Below, piece by piece: positions 15,358 to 56,014 of a stretch of 64,000 bases of DNA. Within the stretch, counting starts at the first letter, position 1; each line of letters starts with the position of its first letter. The stretch lies in NCBI GenBank assembly GCA_027923505.1, contig BROI01000006.1, positions 744,001-808,000 on the forward strand. The letters are read 5' to 3'. This stretch comes from Mayamaea pseudoterrestris (taxonomy: Eukaryota). Both the position numbers and the translations under genes were made by a program. Under the pieces are notes generated by a model. The model was not told the DNA's origin, ran no database searches, and worked only from the letters and a program-made list of their open reading frames with translations.

Positions 15358-15740
15358 CTGAGTGCTGCGGTTGTTTCCCCAGTGCCAATGAACCTTGTCA
15401 TGCGACGCTGAGACAATGATTCTTTGCCTTCGTAGTATCAACTACGTATGAGACTCTTTAAAATAACTATAGCTTAATGCGATAGCTCAAAGAGATGCTA
15501 ATCATCGCTACTTTAACTGTAAATAGTACTCAAACCATACTTCTACCACAATTTCATTTGCGGCTTCGACGAGCAAACGGAAGCTGAAAATCGCTCCGGT
15601 ACTCGTCCGTCCATCGTTTGGTCTGCGCGAGGCAGCAAGGTTCGCCATGGCGATCTGCGGCATCATCATCAAGCATATACTGTGTATCTTCCTTTCGCTG
15701 ATCTGTTACGCACTTGAATCTAACCAAACGACAATCCGCC

Positions 15741-24346: not shown

Positions 24347-25336
24347 TAATTACAATGACGTATAGTTAACATTACATGTTTAGCATGATAGTAGGTTTTA
24401 TCAATAGTTGCTATGCACACTCGAGCATTTTGCGGAAATGACGCTGCTTTTCGCCAATAGTTGTCGTGTTCAACCAACCATCTATAAACGCACGACGTGT
24501 ATTGACGCCAAACTCGCGTCTTGTATAAGATTTGGTGCAATTGCTTCGTCGTTCAACGTATTCTGTAAGCTTTGTCTCGCGTCGTATACCATTGAACGTC
24601 AATCGACTCGGAACATTGCTGACGGTTGATCCGGAGGCACCTTCATTCTGCATCCTTTGTCTGTTTTCGTCGCAGACCTGCCCGACGTAGTATAATGATA
24701 CCAGTACTGGCATGGATACATCGAATTGCAAGTATTGATTGTCTCGTTGCTGCGCGTGTTTGTCGCTCATTGTTTCGTCGACAAGCTCACGACGTTGGCA
24801 TGGCAGTGCCATTGGCGGCTGCTTCTCCTTTTATTCAAGCAACCAGCGCAGCCGCACGATTTATTCGACATTTGCAGCTGCACTAGCTTCTTGTCTAGTA
24901 AATTGTCGCCGACGAGTTGGTCTTCTATAGTAGTCGATGATTTGCGACTTGTCGTCGAGTCGTCGGCAATGAACGGACGACTGAAGTAACGCTTTTGCTT
25001 CACTGCAGTCGTTCAAGCTTCACAATATCATTATAGATCGTTGTCAGCGAATTTTGGAGCAAGCCGTGTTGTCCTGCTTGCAAGGTTAAACACACGGTTA
25101 AACCAGGACTCCGTTTGCAGCAGTTTCGTCGTCTCGCCTCCTCGTCTTTTCGTCATGCGATTTGCCGTACACGAGCCTCCTTCCATAGGTCTGTCGAGAT
25201 ATCGAAAAGATCCTCCCAGTAGTACGGTTGAGATCTTGTACTTGAACTAAAACTCGACCATTCGTCTCAGCGTACCTGCGCTTGCTGGAAGGAAGGTTCA
25301 TGATTATTTCACGATGATGATGTGCCTTCGTCCATG

Positions 25337-25606
25337 CGCCCACTGCTCGTTCATGCTTCGAGCCACATTCCTTTTCGGAAGTCCTGCCCAGCTCCGTGCC
25401 AACTGCTTTGACACATATTTGATTGGCCATAATACGTCACGACATGACGTGTCACCGTCGAGGCGGCGCGATCCACGCCCACGGCGCGTTCATGCTTCGA
25501 GCCATTCCCACCGTACGTCCAGCCCAGCTCCGTGCCCACTGATGTGACGCACATCCGATTGGCTAGAATACGTCATGCCTTGACGTGTCACCGTCGAGGC
25601 GGCGCG
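25337..25606. repeat. Imperfect tandem duplication, 2 copies with ~139-bp period
   Basis: Shared blocks cgttcatgcttcgagcca, gcccagctccgtgcc, gattggc.a.aatacgtca and tgacgtgtcaccgtcgaggcggcgcg occur at ~25337-25470 and ~25476-25606. Confidence 0.85.
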
Positions 25607-25817
25607 CGAATGTCCTCGCGGTGCCTGCACGCGTCAAGCTTGGCACGTAGAACCATCGGACATTGTTTCTCACCGCTCCCTTTGCGTCATACCAGCGCCT
25701 ATTATACGCTTGTACATTGAAAGTCCTCGTCAACCAATAGGAAAACTAAAGATAGCTATGACGGAAGGCACGCCATGAGAGAAGATTATATATGTATTGA
25801 TGCCGCTTTGTGGTAAT

Positions 25818-25890
25818 GGGGTATTAGCTCAGTGGTATGAGCGCCCGCTTTGCATGCGGGAGGTCCGCGGTTCGATCCCGTGATACTCCA
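25818..25890 (+). tRNA. trnA-UGC: tRNA-Ala (anticodon UGC)
   Basis: Acceptor stem GGGGTAT/ATACTCC with the G3:U70 Ala identity pair, D arm GCTC-AGTGGTAT-GAGC, anticodon arm CCCGC-TT-TGC-AT-GCGGG, T arm CGCGG-TTCGATC-CCGTG, discriminator A and a downstream T-run. Confidence 0.97.
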
Positions 25891-26044
25891 TTTCGTTTTG
25901 CCATTGCCGTTTATACTTGTTACGATTGTCCCAGCCTAGCATACATTTTTTGCCGCGTTCAAACATGCTTCTGCTGCTGGCGAATGCACTGTCAATTTGT
26001 CGCGCAGCAAGTAATGGCTCTCTTAAAAACCATGACGACTTCAG

Positions 26045-26076
26045 CAAATCGCAAATCGCAAATCACAAATCACAAA
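26045..26076. repeat. Short heptamer tandem repeat (CAAATCR) x~4.5
   Basis: caaatcg caaatcg caaatca caaatca caaa read directly. Confidence 0.7.
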
Positions 26077-26375
26077 CCCATTAACACGTTCACATCCTCC
26101 GTGGAGCTACACTGCTGCATTTATGTAATTGTTTGCTGTTCTATCTGTATAATGCACATTATGTGAGATTAACAGAGCTTTATTAAAGGTAATTAGTGAG
26201 ACAGCGTACAACACCACAAGTCTTTTTGTGAAGGAACTGGGAAGAGGGTTCCTCCAAAATAGAAGAGAGTGTTTTGTCACAAAAGCATTCAGTAAAAAGT
26301 GATACTTTATCCCAACATGTAATAGGGTTGTAAATCATGTGATGATATCCTCTTGGTATTTCGTCGATTGGCGTC

Positions 26376-29300
26376 TTAAATGCCACCTTGAGTGCAGCAT
26401 GAGCATTGCATCTTGCCAAGGTCAACCTCAAATGTTGCGAGATTGCCTGCAAACATGAGATCGCACATGGCATCAACATCGCCGCTCATGTCATTGTTGA
26501 AAAGTGTAACTTGGCGCAGTTTGGATGTTTTACCTGCAAAATCAGTGGCAAATTCTGATGCTGGAAATGTGCCAGTCAGCTGATTGTTGTGTAAAAGCAG
26601 CTCTTCAATCTTGGGCGCATTAATGTCAGCCGGAACTGTGCCTGTCAGTCGATTGCCATCCAAATGTAATCGTTGCCAGTCAAGCTTGCCAAAGTCACTG
26701 GGTATGGATCCAGAGATATCATTGTTCTCCAAGAAAAGTGTGCGGAGATTGGGCTCAGTTAAAGGAACATTATTGGGAATTGTGCCTGTGAAAAAGTTGT
26801 ATGCCATATCGAGGTAGACCATATCTTCGAACTGCCACATGAAGTCAGGAATCGTGCCTTTAAACAGGTTAAAGGATAGCGAAAAAGTGTCAAGCTCCGA
26901 TAATTTCACAAAGTCTGATGGTATTGTACCTGACAATAAATTGTCGGAGAGTGTGATCTCCCAAAGTGTGGACAGCATTGAGATTTCAGGTGGGAGAGTG
27001 CCTCTCATCTGTTGACCATAGTTTCGTATTATCTGGTACTCTTCAAAGCGGCCACATGGGTCGACTCCAATCATAGTGTACCAATCGCATTCATGGAGGT
27101 CGGAGACCCATAAATCTCCCTCCAACCAATTGTCACCATTGAATTCGCAGTACATTAAGGCCATTGCAAAGCGCTGTCGAATTCGCTCGACCTGGAACTC
27201 CATTATATCTTTTCCGGTTCGAAGCCATTCCCTTGCCCAATTCTGACAGGTACCGGGAATATTAATCAGATCCCTTGTTTGTGGAGGCAAAGCAGGATCA
27301 ATAGCACCCATGATGTAACCACATTCAGCACTTTGTACACAAGGCAGAGAAGGTGGGATTGGGAGGTTTGGAAGAGTGTGAGGGGTGTTTGATATCGGAG
27401 CAGCCGGATTAAAGCCTAGCATCGGTGGTGTGCCCCCAGCCGGCGGAGGCACTGCAATGCTTGATGCGCCCATGTAAGTTACGGCAGCCACCAGCGGCAA
27501 GCTAAGCCAAATTGGCAAAACAATCCCTTTTGGAGCTTCCTTTTCTTCTTCTTCTGGCTCGTTGTATATGTCTTCCGGAATTGACATTGGCCTAGGCCCA
27601 GCTCCGGTGTCATCTTCTTCGTCGGGGTTTGATGCCCAAGGGGCGGATGGATTCTCCACGTCAGGACTACCCACCGGGTAGATTGGCTTGCTGCTTGTGA
27701 AATCAAAGTCATCATAAGTTTCTGGGGATGTCTTTGGCATTGATCCTGCCGGAGGCTTGGGCTTAGTGCTTGTGAATTCAAAGTCATTGTAAGTCTCAGG
27801 CCGATCTTGATGTTCAGCCCTTGGTTCTGAACGGCCTGAGGCTGGTTTATTGCTACTGAACTCAAAAATATCATGCGTCTCCGGCGCCTTCTTGGGTGGT
27901 GGTGGGCCACGCCTCCAGTCCCATCCAGGATAGTCCTCATCGTCAACAACCGGTTTTGTATTAGGTTTTGGTTTTTCACTCACGTATTCAAAACTAGCGT
28001 GCTGCGGTCGACTGCGGTTCCAGTCCCATTCCGGAGACTTATCTGAGGTATTATCATCATGCCGAGGCCTTGGTGGCAGCCCTTCTTGGGGGCCCGTTGG
28101 ACCAAATCCTACCGGTGCAAGTTCTTCATCTGCAGGGACGGCTCGCTGCCTGTTCCAGTCCATGTCAGGTTCATCGTCAAAAACGTCATTCTTCCCAGGT
28201 CTTGAAGGGGTAGTACCCTGTGGGCCGAACGGCCCACTGAACGGAGAAGGCTCTCCAGTTCCAGGTGTTGGCCTATTACGATTCCAGTCCCATGCGGGCA
28301 ATCCATCCGTCTCGTCACCACCAGGGATATGCCTTGGAAGTCCTTCATTTGGGCTTAGTATACCTTGGGTGTCAGGTGGCACTTCGTTACCTGGAATGGG
28401 TCTATTGCGGTTCCAGTCCCAAGCAGGGGAGGCTTCAGGAACTTCAGTTGCCTTTTTTGGATGGTAGTTGGAAGCCTGAGGCACTAGCTGCCCCTGTGGT
28501 TTTGGGCCCAAAGCATCAGGAATATCTGCACCCTTGTTTCTAAGCCAGTCCAAAACTTTTTCAACGTCTTCGGGTCTAGAATCGTCTGGAGGAAAAGCGC
28601 TCGCTGATGAAGAACCAATAATTGGAGGTTTGATAGCGCCAGGAACCTCTTCTTCAACAGAAGGCGCATTAGGATTCCTCATCCATTCAAGAGCTTCTTC
28701 CATTGCCTTCTTCTTATTGGCTGGTGACAGTTGACGCGGCAGTGGAACACCAGCAATGTTCGCTAGAGCCTCCAGTGCCGGTTCGTCGATCTCGTCAGGA
28801 TTTGGTTCGTGGCCTCTTAACCAGTCAAGAGCATTATCAACTGCAGCCTTCTTCTCGTCAGCATTCAAACTACCTCTTGGGGGAGGCACCCCCGCCAAAT
28901 TCAACAAATTATTAAGTGTTGGCTCATCAATTTCATGCGCTGGACCTTTGCGCCTCAGCCAGTCCAAAGAGTCATCTAGCACATTTGTTTTGTCTTCTGG
29001 CGTCAGCTGGCGAGGCAGTGGAACGCCAGCAAGATTGGCAAATGCTTGAACTGTGTCTTCATCCACATCATCTACTTGTGGATTATTGTTTCGAAGCCAA
29101 TCCATTACTGCGTCAAGAGCTTCTTTTAGTTCTGTGGGTGGGATATGGCTGGGAAGAGGCAATCCCGGGACATTGACAATGTCTGCTGGTTGATGAATGT
29201 GACCACTCAAAATAGGTGTCTGAGATCGACGCGCCCAATCAAGTTCTGGTTCAGCCAGCGGTTTCTTGGGAAGATTAACGCCGGCAGTTTTAACGAGGGC

Positions 29301-32300
29301 TTGGAGCGAAGGCTCATCTAACTCTTCAATAGACTTTGGTGTTGGAGGATGCTTGCGTAGCCAGTCAACTGAATCGCTCAAAACTTGTTTCTTTTGGTCA
29401 TCGTCAATTGGGCATTTTGGTAATGAAATCCCTGCCATGTTTGCAAAGGCCCTTAATGAGGGTTCGTCGACATCATTGGGTATGGGATTGTTCTTTCGCA
29501 ACCAATTCACAGCATCATCCACAGCCTCCTTCCTACTGGTCGGTGTTCGTGGCAACGGAATACCAGCCAAATTAGCAAGTGACAGCAATGTAGTTTCATC
29601 AACATTATCCACCAAAGGGTGGTTGGTTCTTATCCAGTTCATTGCATCCTCCACTATCAGTGGTTTTTCACAGCTGAGAATTTCACGTGGTGTTGGAGTA
29701 CCAGCAAGATTCATGAGTGCACTCATTGTTGGTTCTGTTACTTCAACAGCACTGGGAGAAAGGCTCCGAATCCAGTTCACAGTATCTTCAAAGGGCTTCT
29801 GAAACTCTGGTGAAAGATGACTCCTTGGGAGCGGAACACCAGCAAGATTGGCCAGCGCCCGAAGAGTTGGCTCATCTACATCATCTAAATTGGGAGTATT
29901 GCCTCTAAGCCAGTTCATTGCGTCATCAACAGAAGATTGTTGCCCTGATGGGGGTGTTGTCCTGGGCGTTGGAATTCCGGCAAGGTTCATCAGTGCACTC
30001 ATTGTTGGTTCGGTTAATTCACCTGCATTGGGTGGATGGCTTCGAATCCAATCCACAGTGTCATCAAGGGGCTTCTGAAACTCTGGCAAAAGGCGACTCC
30101 TTGGAAGAGCGACACCAGCAATGTTGGCCAGTGCTCGAAGGGTTGGCTCATCCACATCACCTAATGTCGGAGTATTTTCCCTAATCCATTTCAATGCATC
30201 ATGTAGCAAAGGTCCTTGCTCTGATGAGGGAACTGTCCTAGGGGTTGGAATTCTGGCAAGATTAGCCAATGCATCCAGGGTTGGTTTGTCTATGTCATTT
30301 TCAGACGGAGGATTGTTTCTGAGCCATTCCAACGTGTCATTGAGAGGCTTCTGGTGCTCAAATGATAACTGTTTGCAAGGCAATGGAACACCAGCTAGAT
30401 TGGCAAGTGCGCGGAGGGTTGGCTCATCCACATTTTCTGGTTTGGGATTGTTTGACCTTATCCAGTTAATTGCTGTATCTAAAACATGAGACTTTTGTGT
30501 CAGAGATACATCACGTGGAGATGGAATTCCAGCTAAGTTAGCAAGAGCATCCAAAGTAGGCTTGTCTAACTCATTCACCAATGGAGGATGGCTGCGAAGC
30601 CAATCTACACAATCATTCAGAGCATTCTGCTGCTCATGAGAAAGTGGACAGTGGGGAATTGGGACACCCGCTAAATTAGCGAGCGCACGTAGAGTAGGCT
30701 CATCAATATCTTTTGGATCTGGCTTGTTGCTTCTAATCCAGTTCCAGGCTTTATCCACCACTTGGGGTTGCTCAGATGTGGGAATGGATCGAGGTGTAGG
30801 AACTCCTGCTAGGTTGGCTAATGCCTCTATGGTTGGCTCATCAAGCTCACCAGGCTTAAAGCTTTGATTTCGGAGCCATTCGGTGGTGTCACTCAAAATT
30901 CCAGCCTGGTCTGGAGTCAAAGTAGATCTTGGGAGTGGCACACCTGCTAGATTTGCAAGAGCTCGAAGTGTAGGCTGATCAATCTCCTGTGGTTTTGGAT
31001 TGTTGCTCCGCAGCCAATTAATGACTTTCTCTATAAGCATTGGCTGCTGGGACTTGGGAATTTCTCGTGGTGTTGGAATCCCAGCAAGATTTGCCAAAGC
31101 GTCCAATGTGGGTTCATCAATATCTGCTGCAGTAGGGGCACTACTGCGCAGCCACTCTGTTGTTTCATTCAAGATGTTGATCTGTTCTGGGGTCAGGGGA
31201 CTACGTGGAAGTGGAACACCTGCCAAGTTAGCAAGTGCTTGTAGTGTTGGCACATCAACCTTTGCTGGATCAGGTTGGTTATCCCGAAGCCATGTCATAG
31301 CTTGGTCCAATATACCAGGTTTTTGTGACATGGGAACAGTTTTTGGTATTGGAATTCCTGCTAAATTGGCCAATGCTTTCAAAGTAGGTTCATTAATCTG
31401 ATCTGCTGCAGGATTGTGGCCACGGAGCCATTCTATGGTAGTTTCAAGGACTGCAATTTGCTCCTCTGACATTGGACTGCATGGCAAGGGAACTCCTGCA
31501 AGATTGGCAAGTGCACGGAGGGTTGGCTCATCCACATTTTCTGGTTTGGGATTGTTTGACTGTATCCAGTTCAAAGCAGTATCTATAACTTGTGGCTTTT
31601 CAGATTTAGGTATATGGCGTTGTGATGGAATTCCAGCTAGGTTGGCTAGTGCATCAAGGGTTGGCTGGTCATGGAGTTTTTCCAAGGGCTTGTGATTGCG
31701 CAACCATTCTGTTGCACTGTTCAGCACAGCCTCCTGCGCTGGTGTAAGTGGCATCCGTGGAAGTGGTATGCCAGCCAAATTGGCAAGTGCTCGAAGGGTT
31801 GGCTCATCTACTTCCTTGGGGTCTGGGTGGTGGTTGCGTACCCAATTCATTGCATCATCAACAATCTTTCCAACCTTGGATTCTGGAATCTGCCGGGGTG
31901 TTGGCACTCCAGCAAGGTTTGCCAAAGCTTCCAAAGCAGGACCACCAAGTTCATGTGCCTTAGGTTTGTTATTTCGCAGCCACTCAGTAGTGGCATCCAA
32001 AGTGCTAATCTGCTCTGGTGTCAGTTGGCTTTGCGGTAGTGGTACTCCAGCAAGATTGGCCAAAGCACAAAGTGTTGGCTCATCCACATTTTCTGGTACA
32101 GGATTGTTGCTTCTCACCCAATTCATAGCATCATCTACGACCTTGGTCTTCTGTGACTTGTGAATTGCACGAGGTGTTGGAATTCCTGCTAGATTAGCCA
32201 GTGCTTCCACAGCAAGCTCATCAAGCTCATCTTCAGCAGGCTTGTGGCTACGTAGCCACTCAGTTGCTACAGCAAGCACATTCTCCTGCTCTGGTGAAAG

Positions 32301-35300
32301 CCGGCTCCTTGGCAATGGTATACCTGCCAGATTTGCCATAGCACGAAGTGCAGGCTCATCAACATCATCAGGATCTGGTTTATTCTGTCGGATCCAGTTC
32401 ATAAAATCCTCCAACAATTGTGGCTGCTCAGACTTTGGTACATGACGGGCAGAGGGAATACCTGCTAAGTTTGTCAGAGCCTCTAATACTGGCTCATCCA
32501 GGTATTGTTCAGTGGGCTGGTGATTGCGCAGCCATGTGATGGCCTCATCCAACACGTCTAGCTCTTCCTGTGACATGACTTTACGAGGTACTGGTATCCC
32601 TGCTAAGTTGGCCAGTGCTTGGAGTGATGGTGTATCAATATTCTTTGGTTTGGGGTCATTGTGACGAATCCAGTTCATGGCCTCATCAAGTATTTTTGCC
32701 TTCTGCGACGTCGGAATGTGCCGCCTCGTTGGCAATTCTGCAAGGTTGGCAAGTGCTTCTGCTGTTGGTTCATCAATCTCATTGTCCTTGGGCACATGTG
32801 TACGGAGCCATTCAATGGCATCATCAAGAACTAGTTGTTGTTCATGTGTAAGCATTTGGCGTGGTAGTGGGACGCCTGCAAGATTGGCTAGAGCTTGTAG
32901 ATTTGGCCCATCAGCTAAATTGGGGTTTGGCTCATTCTGTCGAAGCCAATTTACAGCACTGTCAACAACATTAGGCCAATCAGGTAAGGGGATATGTCGG
33001 GGGGAGGGCACACCTGCCAAATTGGCAATAGCATCCAAAGTAGGCTTGTCTAACTCATTCACCAATGGAGGATGGCTGCGAAGCCAATCTACACAATCAT
33101 TCAGAGCATTCTGCTGCTCATGAGAAAGTGGACAGTGGGGAATTGGGACACCCGCTAAATTAGCAAGCGCACGTAGAGTAGGCTCATCAATATCTTTTGG
33201 ATCTGGCTTGTTGCTTCTAATCCAGTTCCAGGCTTTATCCACCACTTGGGGTTGCTCAGATGTGGGAATGGATCGAGGTGTAGGAACTCCTGCTAGGTTG
33301 GCTAATGCCTCTATGGTTGGCTCATCAAGCTCACCAGGCTTAAAGCTTTGATTTCGGAGCCATTCGGTGGTGTCACTCAAAATTCCAGCCTGGTCTGGAG
33401 TCAAAGTAGATCTTGGGAGTGGCACACCTGCTAGATTTGCAAGAGCTCGAAGTGTAGGCTGATCAATCTCCTGTGGTTTTGGATTGTTGCTCCGCAGCCA
33501 ATTAATGACTTTCTCTATAAGCATTGGCTGCTGGGACTTGGGGATTTCTCGTGGTGTTGGAATCCCAGCAAGATTTGCCAAAGCGTCCAATGTGGGTTCA
33601 TCAATATCTGCTGCAGTAGGGGCACTACTGCGCAGCCACTCTGTTGTTTCATTCAAGATGTTGATCTGTTCTGGGGTCAGGGGACTACGTGGAAGTGGAA
33701 CACCTGCCAAGTTAGCAAGTGCTTGTAGTGTTGGCACATCAACCTTTGCTGGATCAGGTTGGTTATCCCGAAGCCATGTCATAGCTTGGTCCAATATACC
33801 AGGTTTTTGTGACATGGGAACAGTTTTTGGTATTGGAATTCCTGCTAAATTGGCCAATGCTTTCAAAGTAGGTTCATTAATCTGATCTGCTGCAGGATTG
33901 TGGCCACGGAGCCATTCTATGGTAGTTTCAAGGACTGCAATTTGCTCCTCTGACATTGGACTGCATGGCAAGGGAACTCCTGCAAGATTGGCAAGTGCAC
34001 GGAGGGTTGGCTCATCCACATTTTCTGGTTTGGGATTGTTTGACCGTATCCAGTTCAAAGCAGCATCTATAACTTGTGGCTTTTCAGATTTAGGTATATG
34101 GCGTTGTGATGGAATTCCAGCTAGGTTGGCTAGTGCATCAAGGGTTGGCTGGTCATGGAGTTTTTCCAAGGGCTTGTGATTGCGCAACCATTCTGTTGCA
34201 CTGTTCAGCACAGCCTCCTGCGCTGGTGTAAGTGGCATCCGTGGAAGTGGTATGCCAGCCAAATTGGCAAGTGCTCGAAGGGTTGGCTCATCTACTTCCT
34301 TGGGGTCTGGGTGGTGGTTGCGTACCCAATTCATTGCATCATCAACAATCTTTCCAACCTTGGATCCTGGAATCTGCCGGGGTGTTGGCACTCCAGCAAG
34401 GTTTGCCAAAGCTTCCAAAGCAGGATCACCAAGTTCATGTGCCTTAGGTTTGTTATTTCGCAGCCACTCAGTAGTGGCATCCAAAGTGCTAATCTGCTCT
34501 GGTGTCAGTTGGCTTTGCGGTAGTGGTACTCCAGCAAGATTGGCCAAAGCACAAAGTGTTGGCTCATCCACATTTTCTGGTACAGGATTGTTGCTTCTCA
34601 CCCAATTCATAGCATCATCTACGACCTTGGTCTTCTGTGACTTGTGAATTGCACGAGGTGTTGGAATTCCTGCTAGATTAGCCAGTGCTTCCACAGCAAG
34701 CTCATCAAGCTCATCTTCAGCAGGCTTGTGGCTACGTAGCCACTCAGTTGCTACAGCAAGCACATTCTCCTGCTCTGGTGAAAGCCGGCTCCTTGGTAAT
34801 GGTATACCTGCCAGATTTGCCATAGCACGAAGTGCAGGCTCATCAACATCATCAGGATCTGGTTTATTCTGTCGGATCCAGTTCATAAAATCCTCCAACA
34901 ATTGTGGCTGCTCAGACTTTGGTACATGACGGGCAGAGGGAATACCTGCTAAGTTTGTCAGAGCCTCTAATACTGGCTCTTCCAGGTATTGCTCAGTGGG
35001 CTGGTGATTGCGCAGCCATGTGATGGCCTCATCCAACACGTCTAGCTCTTCTTGTGACATGACTTTACGAGGTACTGGTAACCCTGCTAGGTTTGCAAGT
35101 ATTTTGAGAGTAGGATCATCCAATTTCTCTGGTTTTGGGTCATTGTGACGAATCCAATTAATTGCGTTGTCCAGCATCTTTGGCTTCTCATTTTCATGGA
35201 AGTATCTGGGGGTGGGTATACCTGCAAGATTTGCTAATGCCTCAGCTGTTGACTGGTCCAAATTATTACCAGTGGGTTGATGCGTACGAAGCCAGTTTGT

Positions 35301-38300
35301 GGCTTGCTGCAGAGCACCAATTTTTTGGTCCATTGGCAGCAATTGTGATGGCATTGGGACCCCTGCAAGGTTGCACAGGGCAAATCCAGTAGGCTCATCA
35401 CATGTAGGTATAACTTCAGAATTACGTAGCCAGTCCAAAGCTTTATTGAGTGCAGTCTCCTTGACTTCAGGTGAATGATCAGCTAATGGTTGGCTAGCAA
35501 GCTTGGCTAGAGTCTTTGTTGTAGGCTCATCAATGCCATCATAATCAATCTTTTTGCTGCGAATCCAGTCAACACAGTCACTAATAGCCTTCGTCTTCTC
35601 TTTCTGTGTGAGAGGCTGACGTGGCAATGGAATACCTGCAAGACTTGCGAGAGCTTCCAGAGTTGGTGCATTGACTCTACCAGGATCCGGGTTATTATTC
35701 CGAATCCATTGCAGTGAATTATAGAATGCCTTTTCCTTTTCTGGCAATGTCTGCATCTTGGGCATTGGTATTCCGGCAAGGTTGCACAAAGCATTTAATA
35801 TTGGTTCATTCACATCATCCAATTCCAAATTATTCTGACGAATCCAATTAACTGCATTTTTTAGCACCACTTCAGAGTTTGTTGTTGTTTTATGAGACAG
35901 TGGGATCCCAGTTATATTGCGGAGTGCATTCAGGGCCAAATCATCAACAGCATCTTGGCTAGGAGTATTGTTTCGCAACCAGTTGAAACAATCATCAAGT
36001 GCTGCTTGCTGATTCACATCGAGTTGTCTTCGAGGCAACGGTACACCAGCTAGATTTGCCAATGCTTGGAGGCTGGGTATATCAACATTAGTTGGGCTGG
36101 GATCATTGCTACGCAACCAAGTCAAACAATCCTCCACAAGCTCCTTCTGGTCAATGGGTGAAAGCTGATCTTGTGGCAATGGAATTCCAGCCAAATTAGC
36201 CAAAGCCTGTAGGGTTGGCTTATCCATGTCAGCCCCTCTTGGCTCATTGTGGCGGATCCATTTGACAATGTCATTCAAGGCCATATGTTGGTCTGGTGCA
36301 ATACTGGTGCATGGCATAGGGACACCTGCAAGGTTAGCAAGAGCTTGAAGTGATGGCTCGTCTATGACTCCAGGCATGGGGTCATTACTGCGGAGCCAGT
36401 CAAGTGCATTTCCTAAAACTTTGGGTTTGTCCTTTGGTTTAATCCGTTCCTTTGGCACTGGAATACCAGACAAAGTGGCAAGTGCCTCAAGCATTGGCTC
36501 AGTCACATCACCAGGAGCAATTTCATGGGTTCGAATCCATTCAAGAGTGTCATCCAAAGCACCCTTTTGTAAAGCTGTCAGTGGCTTTCGAGGTATAGGC
36601 ACTCCAGCCAAGGTTGCAAGTGAATGCAGGGTGGTTTCATCAACACTTGCCGGGTTTGGATCATTGTTGCGGAGCCAACTCAAGGCATGCTCAAGAATCT
36701 TAGGCTTGCTTTTTGGTGTTATGTGCTCCCGTGGCATGGGAATACCAGCCAAAGTAGCAAGTGCATCCACCACTCCTTCATCCAAGTCACTTGGCTTTAT
36801 TTCACTATTACGCACCCAGTCAACCATATCCTGCAAAGCCTCTGATTGCTCTGATGACAATTGATGACTAGGCATTGGTATGCCAGCAAGTGTAGCAAGG
36901 GACAACAAGGTTGTTTCATCAACATCTTGAGGTTTCAAATTATTCTTGCGCAGCCATGTCAATGACTCATCCAAAATCTGAGGCTTGTCTTTTGCAGGGA
37001 TCCTCCTTGCTGGCACAGGAACCCCCGCAATGCTGGCTAGTGCTCGAAGCACAGGCTCACCCACATCCTCAGGCTTGATGTTGGTGTTGCGGATCCAGTT
37101 CAATGCCTTGTCCAAGGATTCCCGCTGCGCAGATGTCAAAGATTCTTTGGGAACAGGTACACCTGCAAGATTTGACAGTGCTTGGAGTGTTGGAGTATCC
37201 ACCAATTCTGGGTTGGGGGAGTTATTACGCAGCCACTTTAAGGCATTCTCCACAATAGTTGTCTTGTCTTTGGGTAATGTCTTGGCCACTGGTAAAGGAA
37301 TGCCAGCCACATTTGCTAGCGCCAGCAATGCAGGCTGGTCAAGGTCTGCAGGATGGGGCCTGTTGTTACGAAGCCAGTCAACAGACTTATCAAGTGCATC
37401 CATCTGGTCCTTGGCAAGTCTACCTTTTGGTAATGGGAGACCAGCAAGTGTGGCCAGTGATTGCAGAGTTGGTGCATCCACCGCTATAGGATTAGGGTCA
37501 TTGTTTCGCAGCCACTCAACAGCGTTGGCAATGATCTTTGGTTTGTCCTTTGATTGAACCTTGATTGGTAGAGGTATGCCAGCTAAATTTGCCATCGCCT
37601 GCATTGTTGCTTCATCAATATCATCTGGTACAAGGTTATTGTTACGGATCCAGTTCAATGACTTACTTAAAACTTCCTGCTTTGCAGAGGTGAAATTGAC
37701 TGGCATTGGCAAGCCAGCCAGCTCCGCAAGTGGGTGCAATGATCCTTCATCAATGCCTTCAAGCTCAGGATCTTGATTTCGTAACCAGTTTATAGCATTT
37801 TCAGCAACAATATCATTGTCCATTGCATTAATGCTATGAGTCATGGGTATCCCAGATAAGTTGGCCAGTGCTTGCATTGTTGGCTTGTCCAACTCATCTG
37901 GGTGTACTCCCGTGTTGCGAAGCCATTCTACGGTATCATTGAGTGCCTCTTCTTGTTTTGGAGAGATAAGTCTTCTAGGACATGGGAGACCTGCAAGATT
38001 AGCCAGTGAGTGCAAAGTAAACTCCTCTATAGCCTCAAGCTTTGGATCATTGCTACGCAACCAAGTCAAACAATCCTCCACAAGCTCTTTTTGGTCAATG
38101 GGTGAAAGCTGATCTTGTGGCAATGGAATTCCAGCCAAATTAGCCAAAGCCTGTAGGGTTGGCTTATCCATGTCTGCCCCTCTTGGCTCATTGTGGCGGA
38201 TCCATTTGACAATGTCATTCAAGGCCATCTGTTGGTCTGGTGCAATACTGGTGCATGGCATAGGGACACCTGCAAGGTTAGCAAGAGCTTGAAGTGATGG

Positions 38301-41300
38301 CTCGTCTATGACTCCAGGCATGGGGACGTTACTGCGGAGCCAGTCAAGTGCATTTCCTAAAACTTTGGGTTTGTCCTTTGGTTTAATCCGTTCCTTTGGC
38401 ACTGGAATACCAGACAAAGTGGCAAGTGCCTCAAGCATTGGCTCAGTCACATCACCAGGAGCAATTTCATGGGTTCGAATCCATTCAAGAGTGTCATCCA
38501 AAGCACCCTTTTGTAAAGCTGTCAGTGGCTTTTGAGGTATAGGCACTCCAGCCAAGGTTGCAAGTGACTGCAGGGTGGTCTCATCAACAGTTGCCGGGTT
38601 TGGATCATTGTTGCGGAGCCAACTCAAGGCATGCCCAAGAATCTTGGGCTTGCTTTTTGGTGTTATGTGCTCCCGTGGCATGGGAATACCAGCCAAAGTA
38701 GCAAGTGCATCTAACTCTGCTTCATCCAAGTCACTTGGCTTTATTTCATTATTACGCACCCAGTCAACCATATCCTGCAAAGCCTCTGATTGCTCTAATG
38801 ACAATTGATGACTAGGCATTGGTATGCCAGCAAGTGTAGCAAGGGACAACAAGGTTGTTTCATCAACGTCATGAGGTTTCAAGTTATTCTTGCGCAGCCA
38901 AGTCAATGACTCATCCAAAATCTGAGGCTTGTCCTTTGCAAGAATCTTCCTTGCTGGCACAGGAACCCCCACAATGCTGGCTAGTGCTCGAAGCACAGGC
39001 TTACCCACATCCTCAGGCTTGATATTGGTGTTGCGGATCCAGTTCACTGCCTTGTCCAAGGACTCCCGCTGCGCAGATGTCAAAGATTCTTTGGGAACAG
39101 GTACACCTGCAAGATTTGACAGTGCTTGGAGTGTTGGAGTATCCACCAATTCTGGGTTGGGGGAGTTGTTACGCAGCCAGTTTAAGGCATTCTCCACAAT
39201 AGTTGTCTTGTCTTTGGGTAATGTCTTGGCCACTGGTAAAGGAATTCCAGCCACATTTGCTAGCGCCAGCAATGCAGGCTGGTCAAGGTCTGCAGGATGG
39301 GGCTTGTTGTTACGAAGCCAATCAACAGACTTATCAAGTGCATCCATCTGGTCCTTGGCAAGGCTACCTTTTGGTATTGGGAGACCAGCAAGTGTGGCCA
39401 GTGATTGCAGCGTTGGTGCATCCAGCGCTATAGGATTAGGGTCATTGTGTCGCAGCCACTCAACAGCGTTGGCAATGATCTTTTGTTTGTCCTTTGATTG
39501 AACCTTGATTGGTAGAGGTATGCCAGCTAAATTTGCCATCGCCTGCATTGTTGCTTCATCAATATCATCTGGTACAAGGTCATTGTTACGGATCCAGTTC
39601 AATGACTTACTTAAGACCTCCTGCTTTGCAGGGGTGAAATTGCTTGTTGGCATTGGCAAGCCAGCCAGTGAGGCTAGACGTTTGACATCCTGAAAATCTA
39701 CAATTTTTGATTGTGGACCCTGATGTTGATCCATTGTTTGTGTCTTGGGTGAAATATCCACACTTGCAGACCTGTCCTTATTTTCTGGGAAAGGAATACC
39801 AGCAAGGTTGGCCAGTGGAGCAATCAGTGGTAGGTCCACAATCCTAGGATGAGGGTCATTGTTTCGAAGCCACTCCAAAGATTGATTAACAGTAGATGCC
39901 TTATCAGGATAAGCTGAGCAAGTTGGTATTGGAATGCCAGCAAGGCTTGCAAGAGTATCCAAGGAACCTGGATCAACTGATTCAGATAAGATGGTATTTG
40001 TCCGTAGCCAAGTTAAGCTGTCTTCAAAAGCTTTTTTCTCACATGGGGACAACTTTTTATGTGGCACAGCTATTCCTGCAAGGGTGGCAAGAGGTAAAAG
40101 GACGGCCTCATCAACATCATCTGGATCAGGACTGTTACTTCTAAGCCAATCAAAGGCACTTTCCAGAAATTTGGATTTCTCCTTTAACCTAACCTGTTCC
40201 TTAGGCACTGGAATACCAGACAAAGTGGCAAGTGCCTCAAGCATTGGCTCAGTCACATCACCAGGAGCAATTTCATGGGTTCGAATCCATTCAAGAGTGT
40301 CATCCAAAGCACCCTTTTGTAAAGCTGTCAGTGGCTTTTGAGGTATAGGCACTCCAGCCAAGGTTGCAAGTGACTGCAGGGTGGTCTCGTCAACAGTTGC
40401 CGGGTTTGGATCATTGTTGCGGAGCCAACTCAAGGCATGCTCAAGAATCTTGGGCTTGCTTTTTGGTGTTATGTGCTCCCGTGGCATGGGAATACCAGCC
40501 AAAGTAGCAAGTGCATCTAACACTGCTTCATCCAAGTCACTCGGCTTTATTTCACTATTACGCACCCAGTCAACTATATCCTGCAAAGCCTCTGATTGCT
40601 CTGATGACAATTGATGACTAGGCATTGGTATGCCAGCAAGTGTAGCAAGGGACAACAAGGTTGTTTCATCAACATCTTGAGGTTTCAAATTATTCTTGCG
40701 CAGCCATGTCAATGACTCATCCAAAATCTGGGGCTTGTCCTTTGCAGAGATCCTCCTTGCTGGCACAGGAACCCCCGCAATGCTGGCTAGTGCTCGAAGC
40801 ACAGGCTCACCCACATCCTCAGGCTTGATGTTGGTGTTGCGGATCCAGTTCAATGCCTTGTCCAAGGATTCCCGCTGCGCAGATGTCAAAGATTCTTTGG
40901 GAACAGGTACACCTGCAAGATTTGACAGTGCTTGGAGTGTTGGAGTATCCACCAATTCTGGGTTGGGGGAGTTGTTACGCAGCCAGTTTAAGGCATTCTC
41001 CACAATAGTTGTCTTGTCTTTCGGTAATGTCTTGGCCACTGGTAAAGGAATGCCAGCCACATTTGCTAGCGCCAGCAATGCAGGCTGGTCAAGGTCTGCA
41101 GGATGGGGCTTGTTGTTACGCAGCCAGTCAACAGACTTATCCAGTGCATCCATCTGGTCCTTGGCAAGTCTACCTTTTTTTATTGGGAGACCAGCAAGTG
41201 TGGCCAGTGATTGCAGCATTGGTGCATCCACCGCTATAGGATCAGGGTCATTGTTTCGCAGCCACTTGATTGAAGCCTCTAGCACACCAGATTTCTGATG

Positions 41301-44300
41301 AGGCATAATGTCTCCACAAGGTAAAGCTAGGCCTGATAATGAAGCCAAGGCCTTCAGCGCTTCATTGTTGACTTTATCTGGGTGCGGATCATGGTTTCTC
41401 AACCACTCTAACGTTTCTTCAAGAGATAGCTTCTGTTCAAAGTTTAGATTGCCATTGGGGATGGTTTGGCCTGCACAGTTGGCAATGGCACGTAGGACAG
41501 GAAGATTCATTTGGTTTGTCTGCGGCTCGTTGTTCCTGAGCCATTCAAGTGCACTTTCCAATACTTTAGATCTGACTTCAGGTGGCAATCGTTTCATAGG
41601 TAATGAAAGACCTGCAACGTTGGCAAGTGCATGTAAAGCATCATCACTGACGTTGATAGGTTTAATACTACTACTCCTTATCCACTCAACGGCATCCTCC
41701 AGTGCGGTACGCTCATCTGGCGAAAGCTTTCTCTGCGGTACTGGGACCCCAGCCAGATTTGCGAGTGTTCTCAGCGTCGCCTCGTTCAAGTCTGCTGGGC
41801 TGGGGTCATTGTTCCGCAGCCAAGTTAAGGCTTGATCCAAAATTATTGGTTTATTCACATCGCGTGCAGCTCGATCCTCCGGCAAAGCAAGACCAGCCAA
41901 GCCTGCCAGTGCCACAAGGGATGGCTCATCGACGTCGCTTGTCGTGATACTGCTGTTTCGGTACCATTCTAATGTATCATCAAAAGCTTTCTCTTGTTCT
42001 GGTGTCAGTTTCTGATGAGGCAATGGCGTGCCTGCAAGGTTGAGCAGAGAGTGAAATGTTGGAAAATCCAAAGCATCAAAGTTGGGGTCGTGACTTCGAA
42101 TCCAATCAAGACAGTCATCCAAAACCAAAGGACCACATTCGTCTCTTGCAATCACCCTGGGAACAAAAAGGCCCGCTAAGTTTGCAAATGCCCCCAAAGT
42201 TTCGTCATCGACATCATCTGGCTGCACATTGTTCGTTCTTAGCCACTTTAACAGGTCAGGAAACATCTTTCTCTGGGCATCGGTGAGTTCCGCCTGTGGC
42301 AGCGGAATCCCGGCTAGATTAGCAAGTGAATTGAGCGTATCAAGGTCAACATCATCATGGTCTATTGTGTTGTTTCGCAACCAGTTTAATGAGTCTTCGA
42401 TAATTGTTGTTCCACCACCACCGGGGGAGCTGTATTTCAGCATTGGCATTCCAGCCAGCGTTGCGAGAGACTGAATTGTAGGAAGATCCATCTCAGCAAA
42501 ATTTGGCTCGTTGTTTCGCAACCAAGTAAGGGCATCATCGAGTGCCCTCTTCTGCTCTAGTGAGAGTGATGCCTTCGGAAGCTCAATGCCCGCTAGCTTC
42601 GCCAGAGTTTTCAGAGAAGAAGCATCGACATGGGCAGCATCTGGTGAGTTGTTGCGCAGCCATTCTAGTGCATCGCGAAGGACTTGAGGTCGTTCAGACT
42701 TCGGAATTCTGCCAGTTGGGATGGGGATGCCTGCTACATTGGCAAGTGCTTCTACAAAGGCTTCATCTACATAGGAAATGCTGTCGCCATTGCTTCGAAG
42801 CCAGTTAAGCATGTCTGCAACCGCTTCCTGCTCTTTCGCTGATGAATGAGTCGGCATCGAAACACCTGCGAGATTGGCAATCTTCTGCAATACTGGTATC
42901 TCTACGTTTCCAAGAACTGGTTCGTTGCTGCGTAACCAATTTATAGCATCCTCGCCAATAGCTTTTGGAGATTTTGCAGACCCTCGAGGCAAAGACAAAC
43001 CAGCAACGCTTACCAAAGCACTGACAAAAGCAGGATCTTTTAAATTTTTCGGCGTTGGCTCATTATTGCGTAGCCACTTCCAAGTCTGATCAAGCAGCTC
43101 ATTCCTCTTGCCAGCTGGCAATGTCCCTCTCGGTAATTTTAAGTGGACGACATTCGATAAAGTTTTCAATGTGGTCGCGTCCAAGGTACCAGCTTCTGGC
43201 GGCTTATTGTTCCGAATCCATTCAAGAGCTTCTTGCGCTGCCATATTGGAAGTAGAAACGTAATTGTGGGGCATTGGCATGCCAGCAATATTAGCAATAG
43301 ACTGTATGGCGTCATCACTTAAATCATCCTTGGGGGCATCATTATGACGTAGCCATTCGACAGCTTCTTCAATGACCTGCTGTTTTTTCTCTGCGGAAAC
43401 ACGAGTGTATGGTAGGGGAATGCCTGCTAAATTGCAGAGTTCTATGAGTGTGTCATCGTCTATATCTGTAGCCGATGGCTCATTATTCCGCAGCCACTGC
43501 AGCGATTCTTCCGTCAAAACTTTAGGGGCCTTATCATAGCCTTCGGGGACCGAAGCTTCCGATATATTGACAAGCGACTGTATGATCTCAGGTGCATCCA
43601 GATCTCTCGGCAAAGGATTGTTTTGGCGAACCCACTTCACCGTTTCTTTTAGCAAGTCTTTCTTCGCCTCGGCGGGCAGCAAACCGCAAGGAACGGCAAT
43701 TCCCGCCATTTTTGCTAGAGGGCGGAGAGTCCCTTCATCAACATCTTCAACGCGTGGCATATTATTTCGTAACCAGTCGATTGCCACCTCTTTAGTTCTG
43801 GTGGGCGATGCGGTTACTGGCGTACCCAATGGCAAAGTCATGCCAGCCAGATTGACCAAGGACTCAATAACAGGGTCACTGAGCTGATCAGCATATATGT
43901 CATTGTTTCGTAGCCAGTCGACCGTGTCGCCGAGTAGCCTCTTCCTTTCGTCCGGCAAGAGCTGGCGCGATGGCAAGGTGAGCCCAGCAAAAGTCGCAAG
44001 AACCTCCAGAGCAGGTTCATCCACTTCATCAGCACTCGGTCGATTGCTTCGCAACCAGTTGAGGGCGTCATCAGCAGCATTTTTTGCTGTTTTAGGGAAA
44101 CCACGCGGTGTATCACCGTGCGTGACTTTAGACAATGCTTCAACTATGCAAGGGTCCGACAAGGATCTCGCAGCAATGTCGTTGTCACGAAGCCAATCCC
44201 AGCACTTGTCCAGAATAGTTTTCTTAATATGGGGAGGGATTGTTCCTCTTGGAGCATGCACAGATGCGACATTCGCTAAAACGCGAAGATCAGAATCATG

Positions 44301-47300
44301 AAAGTTTTCAATCTTCGGCGGTGAATTGTTGCGAATCCATTCGACGGCATCTTCAACCGTCTTATTTGGCGGCGGTGAATATCCACTAGGCATAGGTATT
44401 CCTGCAACATTTGCTAGCGACTGGAGCAATGCATCACTGATAATAGCAGGCGCTGGATCATTTCTTCGCAGCCATAGAATGCACTCTTCGACAATTGCCG
44501 TTTTTTCTGATAAAGTAAGGTTGCTAGGAGCCATAGGCACACCAGCTAAGTTCGCTAAACATGTAAGCTCACCTACGTCAAGAGTAGATGCGTTTGGAGT
44601 GTTCTGTCGCAACCAGCTAACAGCTTTATCGATGGCTTCTCGCTTGGCCAGTGAGGAAAGAGGAAGAGGCAGATCGACTTGGGCAACATTTGCCAAAGCA
44701 CAGAGTGTCGGTCCATCGATGTCAACTTCCTCTAGGTCACTGTTACGCAACCAGTTTATGACATGATCGAAAATGCACATTTTTTGCCTCGTTGTCATAT
44801 TTCCTTGGGGTGCTGACACATTTGCTAAAGTAGACAGTGCGCTGAGTGAAGGCGTATCGAAATCGCTAGCTTTTACGTCAGCATTTCGGGTCCAATGTAG
44901 TATATCAAGTGTGACTCTCTCGCGATCCGTGGGTGAAAGGCTACCAGGGGGCAGCGGGAATCCTGCAAGATTTGTCAAAGCTGTTGCCACAGGATCAGTG
45001 ATGTTCTCATCTGAAAGACCATTACAGCGCAGCCAAGAAACAACATCATCTAATGCTTTTGCTTTCTTTGCTGTATCAATCTTTCCGTAAGGTATCGATA
45101 TGCCTGAAATGCTTGCCAAAATCCGGATGCTTGCATCATCAATATTTTTATGCGATGGTGTGTTAATCCGAAGCCAATTCAACGCCTCTTGTGCAATTTT
45201 TGTCGTCGGTGTCAAGGCAAAACGGCTATGTGGCATTACAATGCCGACTATTTGAGCCAGAGCATACACGTCTGGGTCGTCAATGATGCTCGACACTAAG
45301 CCATTTTTTCGAATCCAGTTGACGGCGTCGTCCAGTGCCTGGTTTTTCATTTTGGGTGTAAGCTTGCCTAAGGGAAGCGGCATTCCGGCAACATTACACA
45401 GTGTCCGCACGTCACTTTCTGCCAATTCGTCTGTCACCAGCGTATTATTACGCAGCCAGAGGACCGCATCATCTGTAACTTGACGCTTGGTGTCAGAGGG
45501 TAACAATCCTGTGACAGGAATCCCACCCAGATTGGCCAAAGCTTTTAGGCCTTCGTCGCTCAATATATCTGTTGAAGGTGTACTACTGCGCAGCCAATCT
45601 ATTGTCTGGTCAAGAATCTCTTTCTTCTTTTTCTGATTCATTTTGCGTCGGGGAAACGAGATTCCAGCTACATTTGCCAAACAAACTAGACTCGGCTCAT
45701 CAAAATCACCCATATTCACGTCATTGTTACGAATCCAATCGAGAGCAGCGTCGGCAGCTTGTTTCTTTGCTAGCGCTGACTTGGACAAGGGTACCTCTAC
45801 ACCAGCAATGTTACAAAGTGCGGAAAGAATGGGATCTGCTAAGTCAGCAACACACGGTTTACATTGCCGTGTCCACAAAACGAATTGTTCAATTAATTCT
45901 TTTTGTTTCCCAGGTGTGTGTGGGCCATTAGGAAGTGACAACCCTGCTAAAATGCTCAGCTGCATGAGTATATCCGCATCCATTTCTATAGGTAGTGGAC
46001 TGTTGTTTCGAAGCCAATTCAGAGCATCCTCGGCGGTAGCTTCCAGGGCGGGGCGAGATAAGAGTCCCCGACGAGGGTAGGCAACACTTGCATTCACAAG
46101 AGCGTGAATAACAGGATCTTCAAGATCGTGTGCTTTAAGCCGATTGTTGCGGAGCCAGTTCATTGACTTCTCAAGAATATCCCTCCTTGCTGCTGGACCT
46201 AACTTTCCTGATACCATCGAAATACCGGCAAGATTTGCAAGATGAATTATGGAAGCATCATCAAGATCGTCTGGATTGGTGCCCTTCACGCGTAGCCAGT
46301 CCCACGATTCCTCGCATAATTTCTCCTTCGCTGCAAGCGACAGCTCTACGCCGGGCAGTGAAATGTTTGCAAGATTTGCCAAGGACTCAAGCATTAGCTC
46401 ATCAATATCTTGAGTCTTCGGATCATTGTTCCGCAACCACGCGTAACTTGCATCAAGGACACTGCTTTTCTTCTCGGGAGAGAGCTTGCTTGGAACTGAA
46501 ATACCAGCGAGATTGGCCAGCATTGTAAGCATATTATCATCAACACTGTCGAGTGGTAAAGTATTGTTCCGCAGCCAGTTTACCGCCTCGGAGATGACTT
46601 GTCTCTTCGCGGCATTACACAGAGGCATTCCAGGCATCGGAATCCCAGCGATATTCGCTAAAGCTAGTGTCTCCGGATCGTCGAGATTTTCTGGTGAAAA
46701 GAAATTGTTTCTCAGCCAAACTATTGCACAGTCCAACCGCTCCTGTTGTTCCTTTAAACCTAGTTTGCCTGTGGGGACGTAGATGCCACATATATTTGAC
46801 AATTGCCGAATTGTTTCCTCGTCAGTATCCACAGCACGGGGGCTGTTGTTGCGTAACCAGTCCATGCTGGTTTTGATTATTCGCTTTTTGGTCGATAAAG
46901 AGATTTTGCACGCCGGAATAGGTAGGCTAGTGACACTTAACAAGGCTGACAGGGTGTGATCATCGACAGCGTCTCTTGGTGTGTCGTTTTTACGGAGCCA
47001 ATTTATCGCTTCATCGAGGGCCGCACTTTTATCCTTCGGGGTCAACCGGCAGCCTGCAGGTACCGAGACACCGGCCAATGACGCCAAATCCCTCACAGAA
47101 TCATCCTCAACTTTATCGGTGCAAGGTACTCCATGGTTCCTGATCCAGAGTAGAGCCCTTTCTGACAAGTCCAATTTTACTGACGCTGGCAGCGCAAAGG
47201 TAGGCACGGCAACGCCGGTGACGTTCACTAATGCCATTAGCGTCGGATCATCTAACTTTTCATGTGGTAGATTGTTGATACGCAGCCAGCGAATAGAATC

Positions 47301-55085: not shown

Positions 55086-55844
55086 GGTCGTTTGCGGCTA
55101 CTGATGCTGGTCGAGTAAAACTAGTGTGCTGATTGCTGTTTTTTTTTTGTTTTTTTTGTAAATTGCTACCAAAAGGACCCTTTCGTAATCGACGAAAAAC
55201 TGACGAAACAGTCGGTGTGTACAGGCTTCCTTTTTGTGTACTCGAAGCCTTCCCAAACTGTGGCAGCAAGCAGTCGATGAGACAACGTAAGGAAGGAGCG
55301 ATGCAACATCTCTCATCGAGACTTGCCACTTGGCCGCAAAAATCCTCTTTCACGTACCTTCTTGCAAACAATCAAAAGCCGTGCTACAGTAATGAAATAC
55401 ATCGTGTGAGTACCCTACAAAGTCTCTTATTCAAAGCGCCATATCACGACTGCGATGATGTAGCACATCACTTCTCCATGTCACTCTCGCGAGGGTTGGC
55501 GTTTCCACGCACCTTAACTCCGAACGGTATCGCTGCCGATGCTACGAATCACTATATGTACGATAAAAAGATGCTAAATTCTACACTCGAAAGCTCTTCC
55601 AAACTTCCAAACGATGCTACACCTCTACGTCTCTTTCTGATTTCTTCAGGTTGGCAGGCATCATCACGTCCCAAGATCAAGATTCCAGCCGGCGTTGAAG
55701 AAGCCATCAAAATGACTGTCTGTGTGACTCCGGCTAGTGACCGACGGAACGAAATGACCGAACTTATTCGTCACGATGACGTTTTTTATGTGATCTTTCG
55801 AGCGAGGCGGCCACGCCGGATCTGCTCTCACAAATTCGTTTTTT

Positions 55845-56014
55845 GCCGTCAACATGGCTCAACATGGCCGTCAACATGGCTCAACATTGCCGTCAACATG
55901 GCTCAACATTGCCGTCAACATGGCTCAACATTGCCGTCAACCTGGCTCAACATCTCAACATGGCTCAACATCTCAACATGGCCATCAAGATGGCTCAACA
56001 TGGCCGTCAACATG
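55845..56014. repeat. Minisatellite, 22-bp unit GCCGTCAACATGGCTCAACAT(G/T) x~5 plus degenerate units (TCAACAT core ~14 times)
   Basis: Read directly from 55845-56014. Confidence 0.92.

Follow-up and report, generated by a model that had tools for sequence, protein, structure and literature searches.

Loss of CpG from the repeat core of a giant diatom gene, a probable footprint of CG methylation

Analysis of a 64,000 nucleotide stretch of the genome of the diatom Mayamaea pseudoterrestris (assembly GCA_027923505.1, contig BROI01000006.1, positions 744,001 to 808,000; hereafter the window) revealed a giant gene from whose core approximately nine tenths of the CG steps that could change without altering the protein had been lost. 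The gene is an uninterrupted open reading frame (ORF) of 9,569 codons on the reverse strand (26376–55085), a single exon of 28.7 kb, and it encodes an array of approximately 160 repeat units of 46–47 amino acids (from about 50144 down to 27917) that carry a W-x-R anchor and an ANLAG-P motif. The depletion has the form that deamination of 5-methylcytosine (5mC) predicts, and 5mC was probably its cause. The composition of the sequence also makes it likely, if with less assurance, that the repeat domain inside this gene was for a long time symmetrically methylated at CG sites and that deamination followed. A first-pass annotation of the window had come to a related interpretation, which overall is partly supported by the patterns described here.

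Extent and character of the CpG deficit

The ratio of observed to expected CpG (CpG o/e), calculated per kilobase, was 0.25–0.38 between 30001 and 41000, 0.55–0.65 between 26001 and 30000 and 0.56–0.72 between 41001 and 43000, compared to 0.88–1.14 between 43001 and 55000 of the same gene. Outside the giant gene it was 0.82–1.46 (about 1.1 in the flanks), the BEACH gene included. As the nine other long ORFs of the window and all flanks had a CpG o/e near or above 1, the term gene-body methylation that the first-pass annotation had used does not apply here in its plant or animal sense.

The borders of the deficit were placed with 300 bp windows, which covered 24000–31499 and 40500–44999. The severely depleted core (29700–41700) had a CpG o/e of 0.19–0.41 in the windows of 29700–31499 and 40500–41399, and of 0.54 at 41400–41699. 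It is bordered by a 3′ shoulder (26100–29699; o/e 0.40–0.80), made up of the tail of the array, the non-repeat C-terminal domain and the first 276 nucleotides past the stop codon, and by a 5′ shoulder (41701–43500; o/e 0.58–0.89) in which partial depletion fades to normal. The 5′ 40% of the ORF (43501–55085, reverse strand), which includes the older half of the array, had a normal CpG content and provided an internal control. At about 26100, 276 nucleotides beyond the stop codon, the 3′ border is sharp: adjacent 300 bp windows went from 1.19 to 0.46 on entering the domain, with an outside level of 1.2–1.3. The untranslated 276 nucleotides after the stop codon were thus depleted too. The 5′ border is gradual, with the o/e rising from 0.29 to 0.88 between 41.1 kb and 41.7 kb and a partial deficit continuing up to about 43.5 kb. 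The span of 30200–41300 that had been proposed for the depletion therefore captured the core and fell short of the full extent, whose limits are approximately 26100 (3′) and 43.5 kb (5′).

A candidate poly(A) signal, AATAAA (26179–26184, reverse strand), is located 192 nucleotides past the stop codon and approximately 80 nucleotides before CpG density recovers; the hexamer has 31 matches in the window, which is the chance level, and its presence here is weak evidence. The sequence between 24300 and 26100, which separates two convergent genes, was unusually CpG-rich (o/e 1.19–1.77) and contained several small indels in some of the contigs described below. A run of GATTTG(T/C) heptamers at about 26045–26085 ends this CpG-rich intergenic stretch, at the CpG step.

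Expected CpG numbers were obtained from 300 simulations per control in which the amino acid sequence of the core was kept fixed. The core contained 185 CpG, compared to 604 ± 19 expected with the codon usage of the 5′ part of the gene, 720 ± 20 with that of the nine other ORFs and 347 ± 10 when the synonymous codons of the core itself were shuffled. For the 5′ part the observed and expected numbers were 686 and 711, for the region 26376–30200 they were 132 and 223 ± 12, and for the 5′ shoulder (41701–43500) they were 70 and 101 ± 8. The CpG deficit is far beyond chance and is independent of base, amino acid and codon composition, and it therefore outlasted the sliding o/e check, corrected for codons and amino acids, that the first-pass annotation had suggested (185 vs 604 ± 19). 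The hand counts given there were also exact: there are 2 CpG in 36781–37020 (o/e 0.17), each in the CGN arginine codon of a W-x-R motif, and 23 in 51121–51360 (o/e 1.49).

Synonymous positions showed that the loss was specific to CpG. The share of NCG among TCN, CCN, ACN and GCN codons (together NCN) was 2–5% in the eight 400-codon bins between codons 4800 and 8000, compared to 16–44% in the ten bins between codons 0 and 4000. Similarly, C before a G made up 3–6% of pyrimidine-ending codons in the former section and 30–45% in the latter, whereas C before a base other than G was the same in both. From the 5′ part to the core the third base of NCN codons changed from 0.257 to 0.037 for G and from 0.294 to 0.475 for A; of the 0.22 lost by G, A gained 0.18 and C gained 0.07, while T dropped by 0.03. 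Where the next codon began with G, the third base changed from 0.226 to 0.022 for C and from 0.405 to 0.554 for T. Fourfold sites unable to form CpG were equal in the core and the 5′ part, as was the G+C content. Over the whole regions, CA was 1.77 in the core and 1.30 in the 5′ part, and TG was 1.29 and 1.01 respectively. Only CG, CA and TG shifted as expected among the 16 dinucleotides; TpA was 0.56 in both parts and 0.52–0.62 everywhere, with no sign of a combined loss of TpA and CpG. The NCG/NCA ratio was 11.3-fold lower in the core and the ratio of C to T before G was 11.8-fold lower, and these near-equal drops in the two strand-specific synonymous classes indicate a strand-symmetric process. 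The corresponding synonymous drop was 1.8–4.4-fold in the 3′ shoulder and 1.5–1.7-fold in the 5′ shoulder.

The CpG that remained in the core were mostly in arginine codons. CGN arginine codons accounted for 124 of the 195 core CpG, compared to 84 of the 364 CpG in the array's 5′ half, in agreement with the earlier proposal that selection keeps CpG where arginine is needed. Arginine was encoded by CGN in 124 of 160 cases (78%) in the core and in 84 of 120 (70%) in the control, with no shift to AGR. Such retention is expected if mutation removes CpG but the arginine is needed, and would be unexpected if CpG were selected against per se. The core also encoded more glutamine (4.3% vs 2.4%) and histidine (1.9% vs 1.1%) than the 5′ array and less arginine outside the motif; this fits CGN-to-CAN decay, though not specifically.

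DNA-similar repeats and recent substitutions

Self-comparison of the gene with blastn (E ≤ 1e-10) detected DNA-level similarity only at 29.7–41.3 kb, which includes segmental duplicates of 93–98% identity, all on the reverse strand. The youngest pair, A1 (30546–32590) and A2 (33030–35074), differed at 10 of 2045 nucleotides (9 transitions and 1 transversion), with a synonymous divergence (dS) of approximately 0.010 and a ratio of non-synonymous to synonymous divergence (omega) of 0.31. B1 (36100–37721) and B2 (38044–39668) were 96.9% identical (dS 0.053, omega 0.40), and the shorter B3 (40062–41266) was 93.5–95.9% identical to B2 and B1 (dS 0.062–0.075). The dS of the A and B copies thus ranged from 0.010 to 0.075, and omega between duplicate copies from 0.31 to 0.49. 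There is no stop codon within the 28.7-kb frame; the giant gene is intact and under purifying selection.

The severe core (about 29.7–41.7 kb) matched the gene's sole DNA-similar span; in the array's 5′ half, where CpG was normal, repetition was seen at the protein level only. The link between depletion and repeats that had been put forward earlier is borne out by this coincidence, but the depletion is not confined to repeats, as the non-repeat 3.6 kb at the 3′ end were also depleted, if more mildly. Core units without a partner of >62% identity (at 40148, 40010, 38063–37787, 36119–35294 and 41405–41684) were depleted to the same degree as the duplicates. In addition, the identity of old core unit pairs at fourfold sites was 0.35, near the saturation value of 0.295 expected from composition. 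Taken together, these two observations indicate that the deficit is regional and was long maintained, and that a CpG-poor founder was not its source. At the amino acid level a core unit shared 37–61% identity with other core units and 26–30% with 5′ units. A search for inverted repeats that might act as a source of hairpin RNA found no pairs of at least 40 nucleotides in 24–56 kb.

Contigs from four other public runs matched the window at approximately 99.8% over 26–32.6 kb (for example with 8 differences in 4385 nucleotides and 5 in 4270 nucleotides), and contigs in three runs joined 33000 to a second block A copy starting at 30541. This agreement, with the junction present in several runs, shows that neither the sequence nor the duplication is an artefact of one assembly. 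The contigs of two runs skipped GT..AG introns in the BEACH gene, which shows that they derive from spliced RNA, and one of these spliced-RNA runs covered 26172–30441, 30546–31545 and 31532–32605 of the giant gene region. Contig depth and contig ends were not taken as evidence on copy number, on the level of expression or on the ends of transcripts; an RNA-like contig that stopped at 26172 came from a single study and is no evidence of a transcript end. Two DNA runs each contained one contig that joined 29581 to 32613, skipping 3031 nucleotides, with a shorter side of only 24 letters; this junction may come from an allele with a shorter array or from a mis-join caused by the repeats.

Alignment of the young copies showed transitions at 6 of 128 CpG sites, compared to 29 of 1629 other G/C sites (odds ratio (OR) 2.7, p = 0.037). 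At synonymous-transition sites the numbers were 3 of 18 CpG and 16 of 437 others, and at non-synonymous sites 3 of 102 and 10 of 1122; stratified in this way, the Mantel-Haenszel OR was 4.1 (p = 0.005; exact one-sided p = 0.008). The enrichment of CpG transitions among paralogous substitutions that the first-pass annotation had anticipated is therefore present, in a small sample. There were 22 G/C-to-A/T transitions and 17 A/T-to-G/C transitions.

Five paralogous differences (30681/33165, 34045/31561, 36589/38533, 40389/38583 and 40542/38736) had been singled out earlier as changes from CpG to TpG or CpA. All five do contrast a CpG with a TpG or CpA; the direction of change, however, is not settled by them. 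Only 31561 can be read as a CpG loss, because the change breaks an arginine of the W-x-R motif that is otherwise conserved and that reads glutamine in copy A1. The difference at 36589 is either a gain in B1, by majority rule, or two parallel losses, and 40389 and 40542 fall on the unrooted branch to B3. Polarising the block B differences by majority rule was rejected, as the tree is close to a star and the B3 branch is unrooted. Most CpG losses were common to all A copies or to all B copies and are thus older than the duplications.

Origin of the deficit

Decay of CpG under methylation is a textbook principle, and deamination of 5mC in a symmetric CG context produces a CpG-specific, strand-symmetric excess of transitions. 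We are aware of no other process that leaves such a signature. On this basis, a domain of approximately 15.6 kb (about 26.1–41.7 kb), the 3′ 54% of the 28.7-kb gene, would have carried symmetric CG methylation for a long time in the cell lineage. Deamination of 5mC would there have changed CpG to TpG or CpA at roughly 11 times the rate of the unmethylated 5′ part. Synonymous changes would have been retained and those destroying arginine (CGN to TGN or CAN) purged by purifying selection, so that the CpG remaining in the core would be mostly those of arginine codons. The domain probably nucleated at the DNA-similar coding repeats, including the 2.0-kb and 1.1–1.6-kb segmental duplicates, and would weaken over about 2 kb on its 5′ side and persist at roughly half its strength as far as the gene's 3′ end. 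Depletion was strongest at the DNA-similar repeats, in keeping with the general targeting of repeats by CG methylation in diatoms, and we lean slightly towards the repeats as the trigger of the presumed methylation. The fullest version of this account is tentative: a long-lived CG-methylation island in an intact, transcribed and selected gene might have been set off by the DNA similarity of its coding repeats, with DNA-diverged repeats escaping, and might extend with transcription to the end of the gene, a form of repeat methylation that would be compatible with transcription.

Several observations weigh against methylation directed at the repeats of this gene. The approximately 4-fold enrichment of CpG transitions rests on only 6 events. 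On the two branches that could be polarised there were 1 loss by transition, 1 loss by transversion and 2 apparent gains, and the ratio of CpG loss to gain rates per dinucleotide (6.5, p = 0.06) does not settle the direction. Simple composition models were ambiguous and failed to part mutation cleanly from selection: for NCN codons both a transition model (chi-square 33) and a proportional model (chi-square 54) were rejected, and for C before G the proportional model fitted slightly better (p = 0.12 vs 0.036). Repeats and depletion may be connected in a partly circular way, since loss of CpG cuts synonymous diversity and can itself raise DNA similarity, and repeat targeting alone does not explain why the non-repetitive 3.6 kb at the 3′ end are also depleted, if more mildly. 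Finally, an intact gene over which RNA-derived contigs extend is not the usual target in published diatom methylomes, where methylated genes are few and mostly weakly expressed or silent.

Sequence alone gives no date, and the domain may have been methylated for long and then have lost its methylation, at the locus or in the lineage, with CpG yet to recover. Most CpG losses predate the duplications, since every copy of block A or of block B has them, and on the polarisable branches the apparent gains (2) were not fewer than the losses (2), both of which suit a purely historic footprint. It is nevertheless at odds with the approximately 4-fold enrichment of CpG transitions among differences that arose after duplication (dS 0.01–0.05) and with borders that are still sharp (1.19 to 0.46 between adjacent 300 bp windows). 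We regard a purely historic footprint as possible but improbable, and the balance tips modestly towards methylation that is still present today.

A process resembling repeat-induced point mutation (RIP) or methylation induced premeiotically (MIP), in which duplicates recognised by pairing are mutated or methylated by an enzyme of the DNMT4/RID type with a preference for CpG, would account for the coincidence of the severe core with DNA-level repeats. The youngest pair, with its 9 transitions and 1 transversion, is of the expected kind, and the DNMT4 of diatoms has been reported to group with fungal RID and to occur in 31 of 60 diatom species, with a function that is not known (PMC9998398). Hypermutation is absent, however, at 10 differences in 2045 nucleotides; there are zero stop codons across 28.7 kb; no excess of C-to-T change was found outside CpG (22 vs 17 transitions); CpA was in excess rather than depleted; and partnerless units and the non-repeat 3′ end were depleted too. 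These features make such a process quite unlikely.

If CpG were selected against in this section of the mRNA or DNA, perhaps as an escape from silencing or from a sensor acting at the RNA level, no raised mutation rate would be needed, and the redistribution of C before G to A, G and T in proportion is not rejected (p = 0.12). Under such selection, arginine should have moved to AGR, yet it was encoded by CGN at 78% in the core compared to 70% in the control, and the 0.22 lost from NCN codons went mainly to the transition product A (0.18). The untranslated 276 nucleotides past the stop codon were depleted, whereas the first 11.6 kb of the same mRNA had normal CpG, and CpG sites differed more often between young paralogues, the opposite of constraint. 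We therefore give selection little credence, marginally less than a RIP- or MIP-like process. The least credible alternative, and a very unlikely one, is that a CpG-poor founder unit or foreign insert was amplified and passed its composition on to the core. In its favour, the core units make up a subfamily that is somewhat more uniform (37–61% vs 26–30% amino acid identity). Against it, the old core units are near synonymous saturation (0.35 vs 0.295 by chance), the core matches the 5′ part in G+C, in all other dinucleotides and at fourfold sites where CpG cannot form, and depletion affects not only blocks A and B but also the unique units that separate them.

Genomic context and relation to known methylation

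The genes around the giant ORF in the window encode PP2C, trigger-factor-like, BEACH, PPR and Maf1 proteins. Over 79% of its length, the PP2C ORF was 100% identical to an NCBI protein of M. pseudoterrestris, a pennate diatom of fresh water. The introns skipped by the RNA-derived contigs of two runs are located at 21575–21638 and 22167–22239 (GT..AG, forward strand), and removing them joins a 1954 amino acid PH-BEACH ORF and a 724 amino acid BEACH ORF into one gene of approximately 8.6 kb. Between 13100 and 16100, the contigs of other runs differed from the window by 2–6% in clustered substitutions, compared to 0.2–0.5% elsewhere, and 235 nucleotides were replaced in them at 15335–15571; this section looks like a divergent haplotype or strain block. 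According to the genome paper, the 30.6-Mb assembly was built from nanopore reads, obtained with a ligation kit on native DNA, and polished with Illumina data; the paper makes no mention of methylation (PMC9724779).

The W-x-R/ANLAG-P array of the giant gene has a two-unit super-period of 92 amino acids (276 nucleotides). The G-C skew of the forward strand was +0.03 to +0.11 at 30001–40000, within the core, and −0.13 to −0.20 at 50001–56000, in the 5′ part of the ORF. The region past the array is non-repeat with respect to the unit; Pfam LRR_1, LRR_8 and LRR_4 matches were found in the final 1207 amino acids, with leucine-rich repeats in the C-terminal 500 amino acids of the 9,569 amino acid protein. 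The 46–47 amino acid unit had no credible Pfam family. Residues 1–1300, used as a query for relatives of comparable length, gave no match at E ≤ 0.001 among 1098 candidates of 5262–16746 amino acids, a search that did not extend to shorter or split forms. An alignment of 20 repeat units contained no conserved stretch of 7–10 columns, and a single 725 amino acid block used as a query against metagenomes gave 45 pattern matches with 0 confirmed.

Methylation in diatoms has been described as repressive and nearly confined to transposons. In Phaeodactylum tricornutum, CG methylation is reported on repeats and transposable elements and depends on DNMT5a; 51 of 9416 genes were located in DNMT5-dependent regions, and methylated genes were mostly weakly expressed or silent (PMC9998398). 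In Pseudo-nitzschia multistriata, approximately 70% of the CpG in repeats were reported as methylated, compared to 1–1.5% in genes (PMC13398520), and in Cyclotella cryptica methylated blocks of up to 30 kb were described, with gene-body methylation that increases towards the 3′ end (PMC5124317). The domain in M. pseudoterrestris resembles the repeat and transposon islands of these three species in its restriction to CG, its repetitive DNA and its form as a sharp-edged binary block in the range of 10–30 kb. Its target is repetitive at the DNA level, as in those islands, and is neither silent nor decaying: it consists of the coding repeats of an intact, selected gene with RNA-derived contigs, not of a transposon or silent gene. 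Methylation of this target is also deduced from its composition.

A deficit in CpG o/e is an established evolutionary signature of heritable methylation, as in honeybee gene bodies (PMC2975444) and cnidarians (PMC8857923), and CpG loss driven by transposable elements has been described in vertebrates (PMC7431005, PMC12582260). As in the animal signatures, CpG was lost and TpG and CpA gained, CGN arginine codons were kept, and the pattern was read from sequence; unlike them, it formed one sharply bounded domain in one gene and not a genome-wide class of low-CpG genes. With RIP and MIP it shares the singling out of duplicated DNA and a C-to-T change linked to a relative of cytosine methyltransferases, and it differs from them in the absence of hypermutation and nonsense changes, the strict CpG context and the equal involvement of partnerless units. 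It is similar to transcription-linked gene-body methylation in lying inside an expressed gene with the 5′ end spared, but here the neighbouring genes were spared and the depletion ran past the stop codon at the 3′ end; according to a recent review, diatoms have no methylation of this type (PMC12344493). The domain is thus better described as a locus-specific island of the repeat type than as plant or animal gene-body methylation, and adds an example, at an unusual location, to a type of footprint that is already known. A full-text search, with results at the abstract level, found no published report of a CpG-depletion footprint in a diatom, which is not proof of absence.

The preferred reading, CG methylation of the intragenic repeats, predicts that CG methylation forms a block bounded at about 26.1 kb and 41.7 kb in an otherwise unmethylated neighbourhood of this approximately 30-Mb genome. 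If it holds, the repeat-directed methylation of diatoms would act on coding repeats without killing the gene, and its borders would have been stable long enough for mutational equilibrium to be reached, at an 11-fold loss of CpG. Methylation would then shape the codon choice, and perhaps the amino acid content, of a giant protein. An array with one half that is repetitive in its DNA and one that is repetitive only in its protein constitutes a natural test of how targets are recognised and, on the fullest version of the account, would amount to a natural titration of the DNA similarity that the targeting machinery needs.

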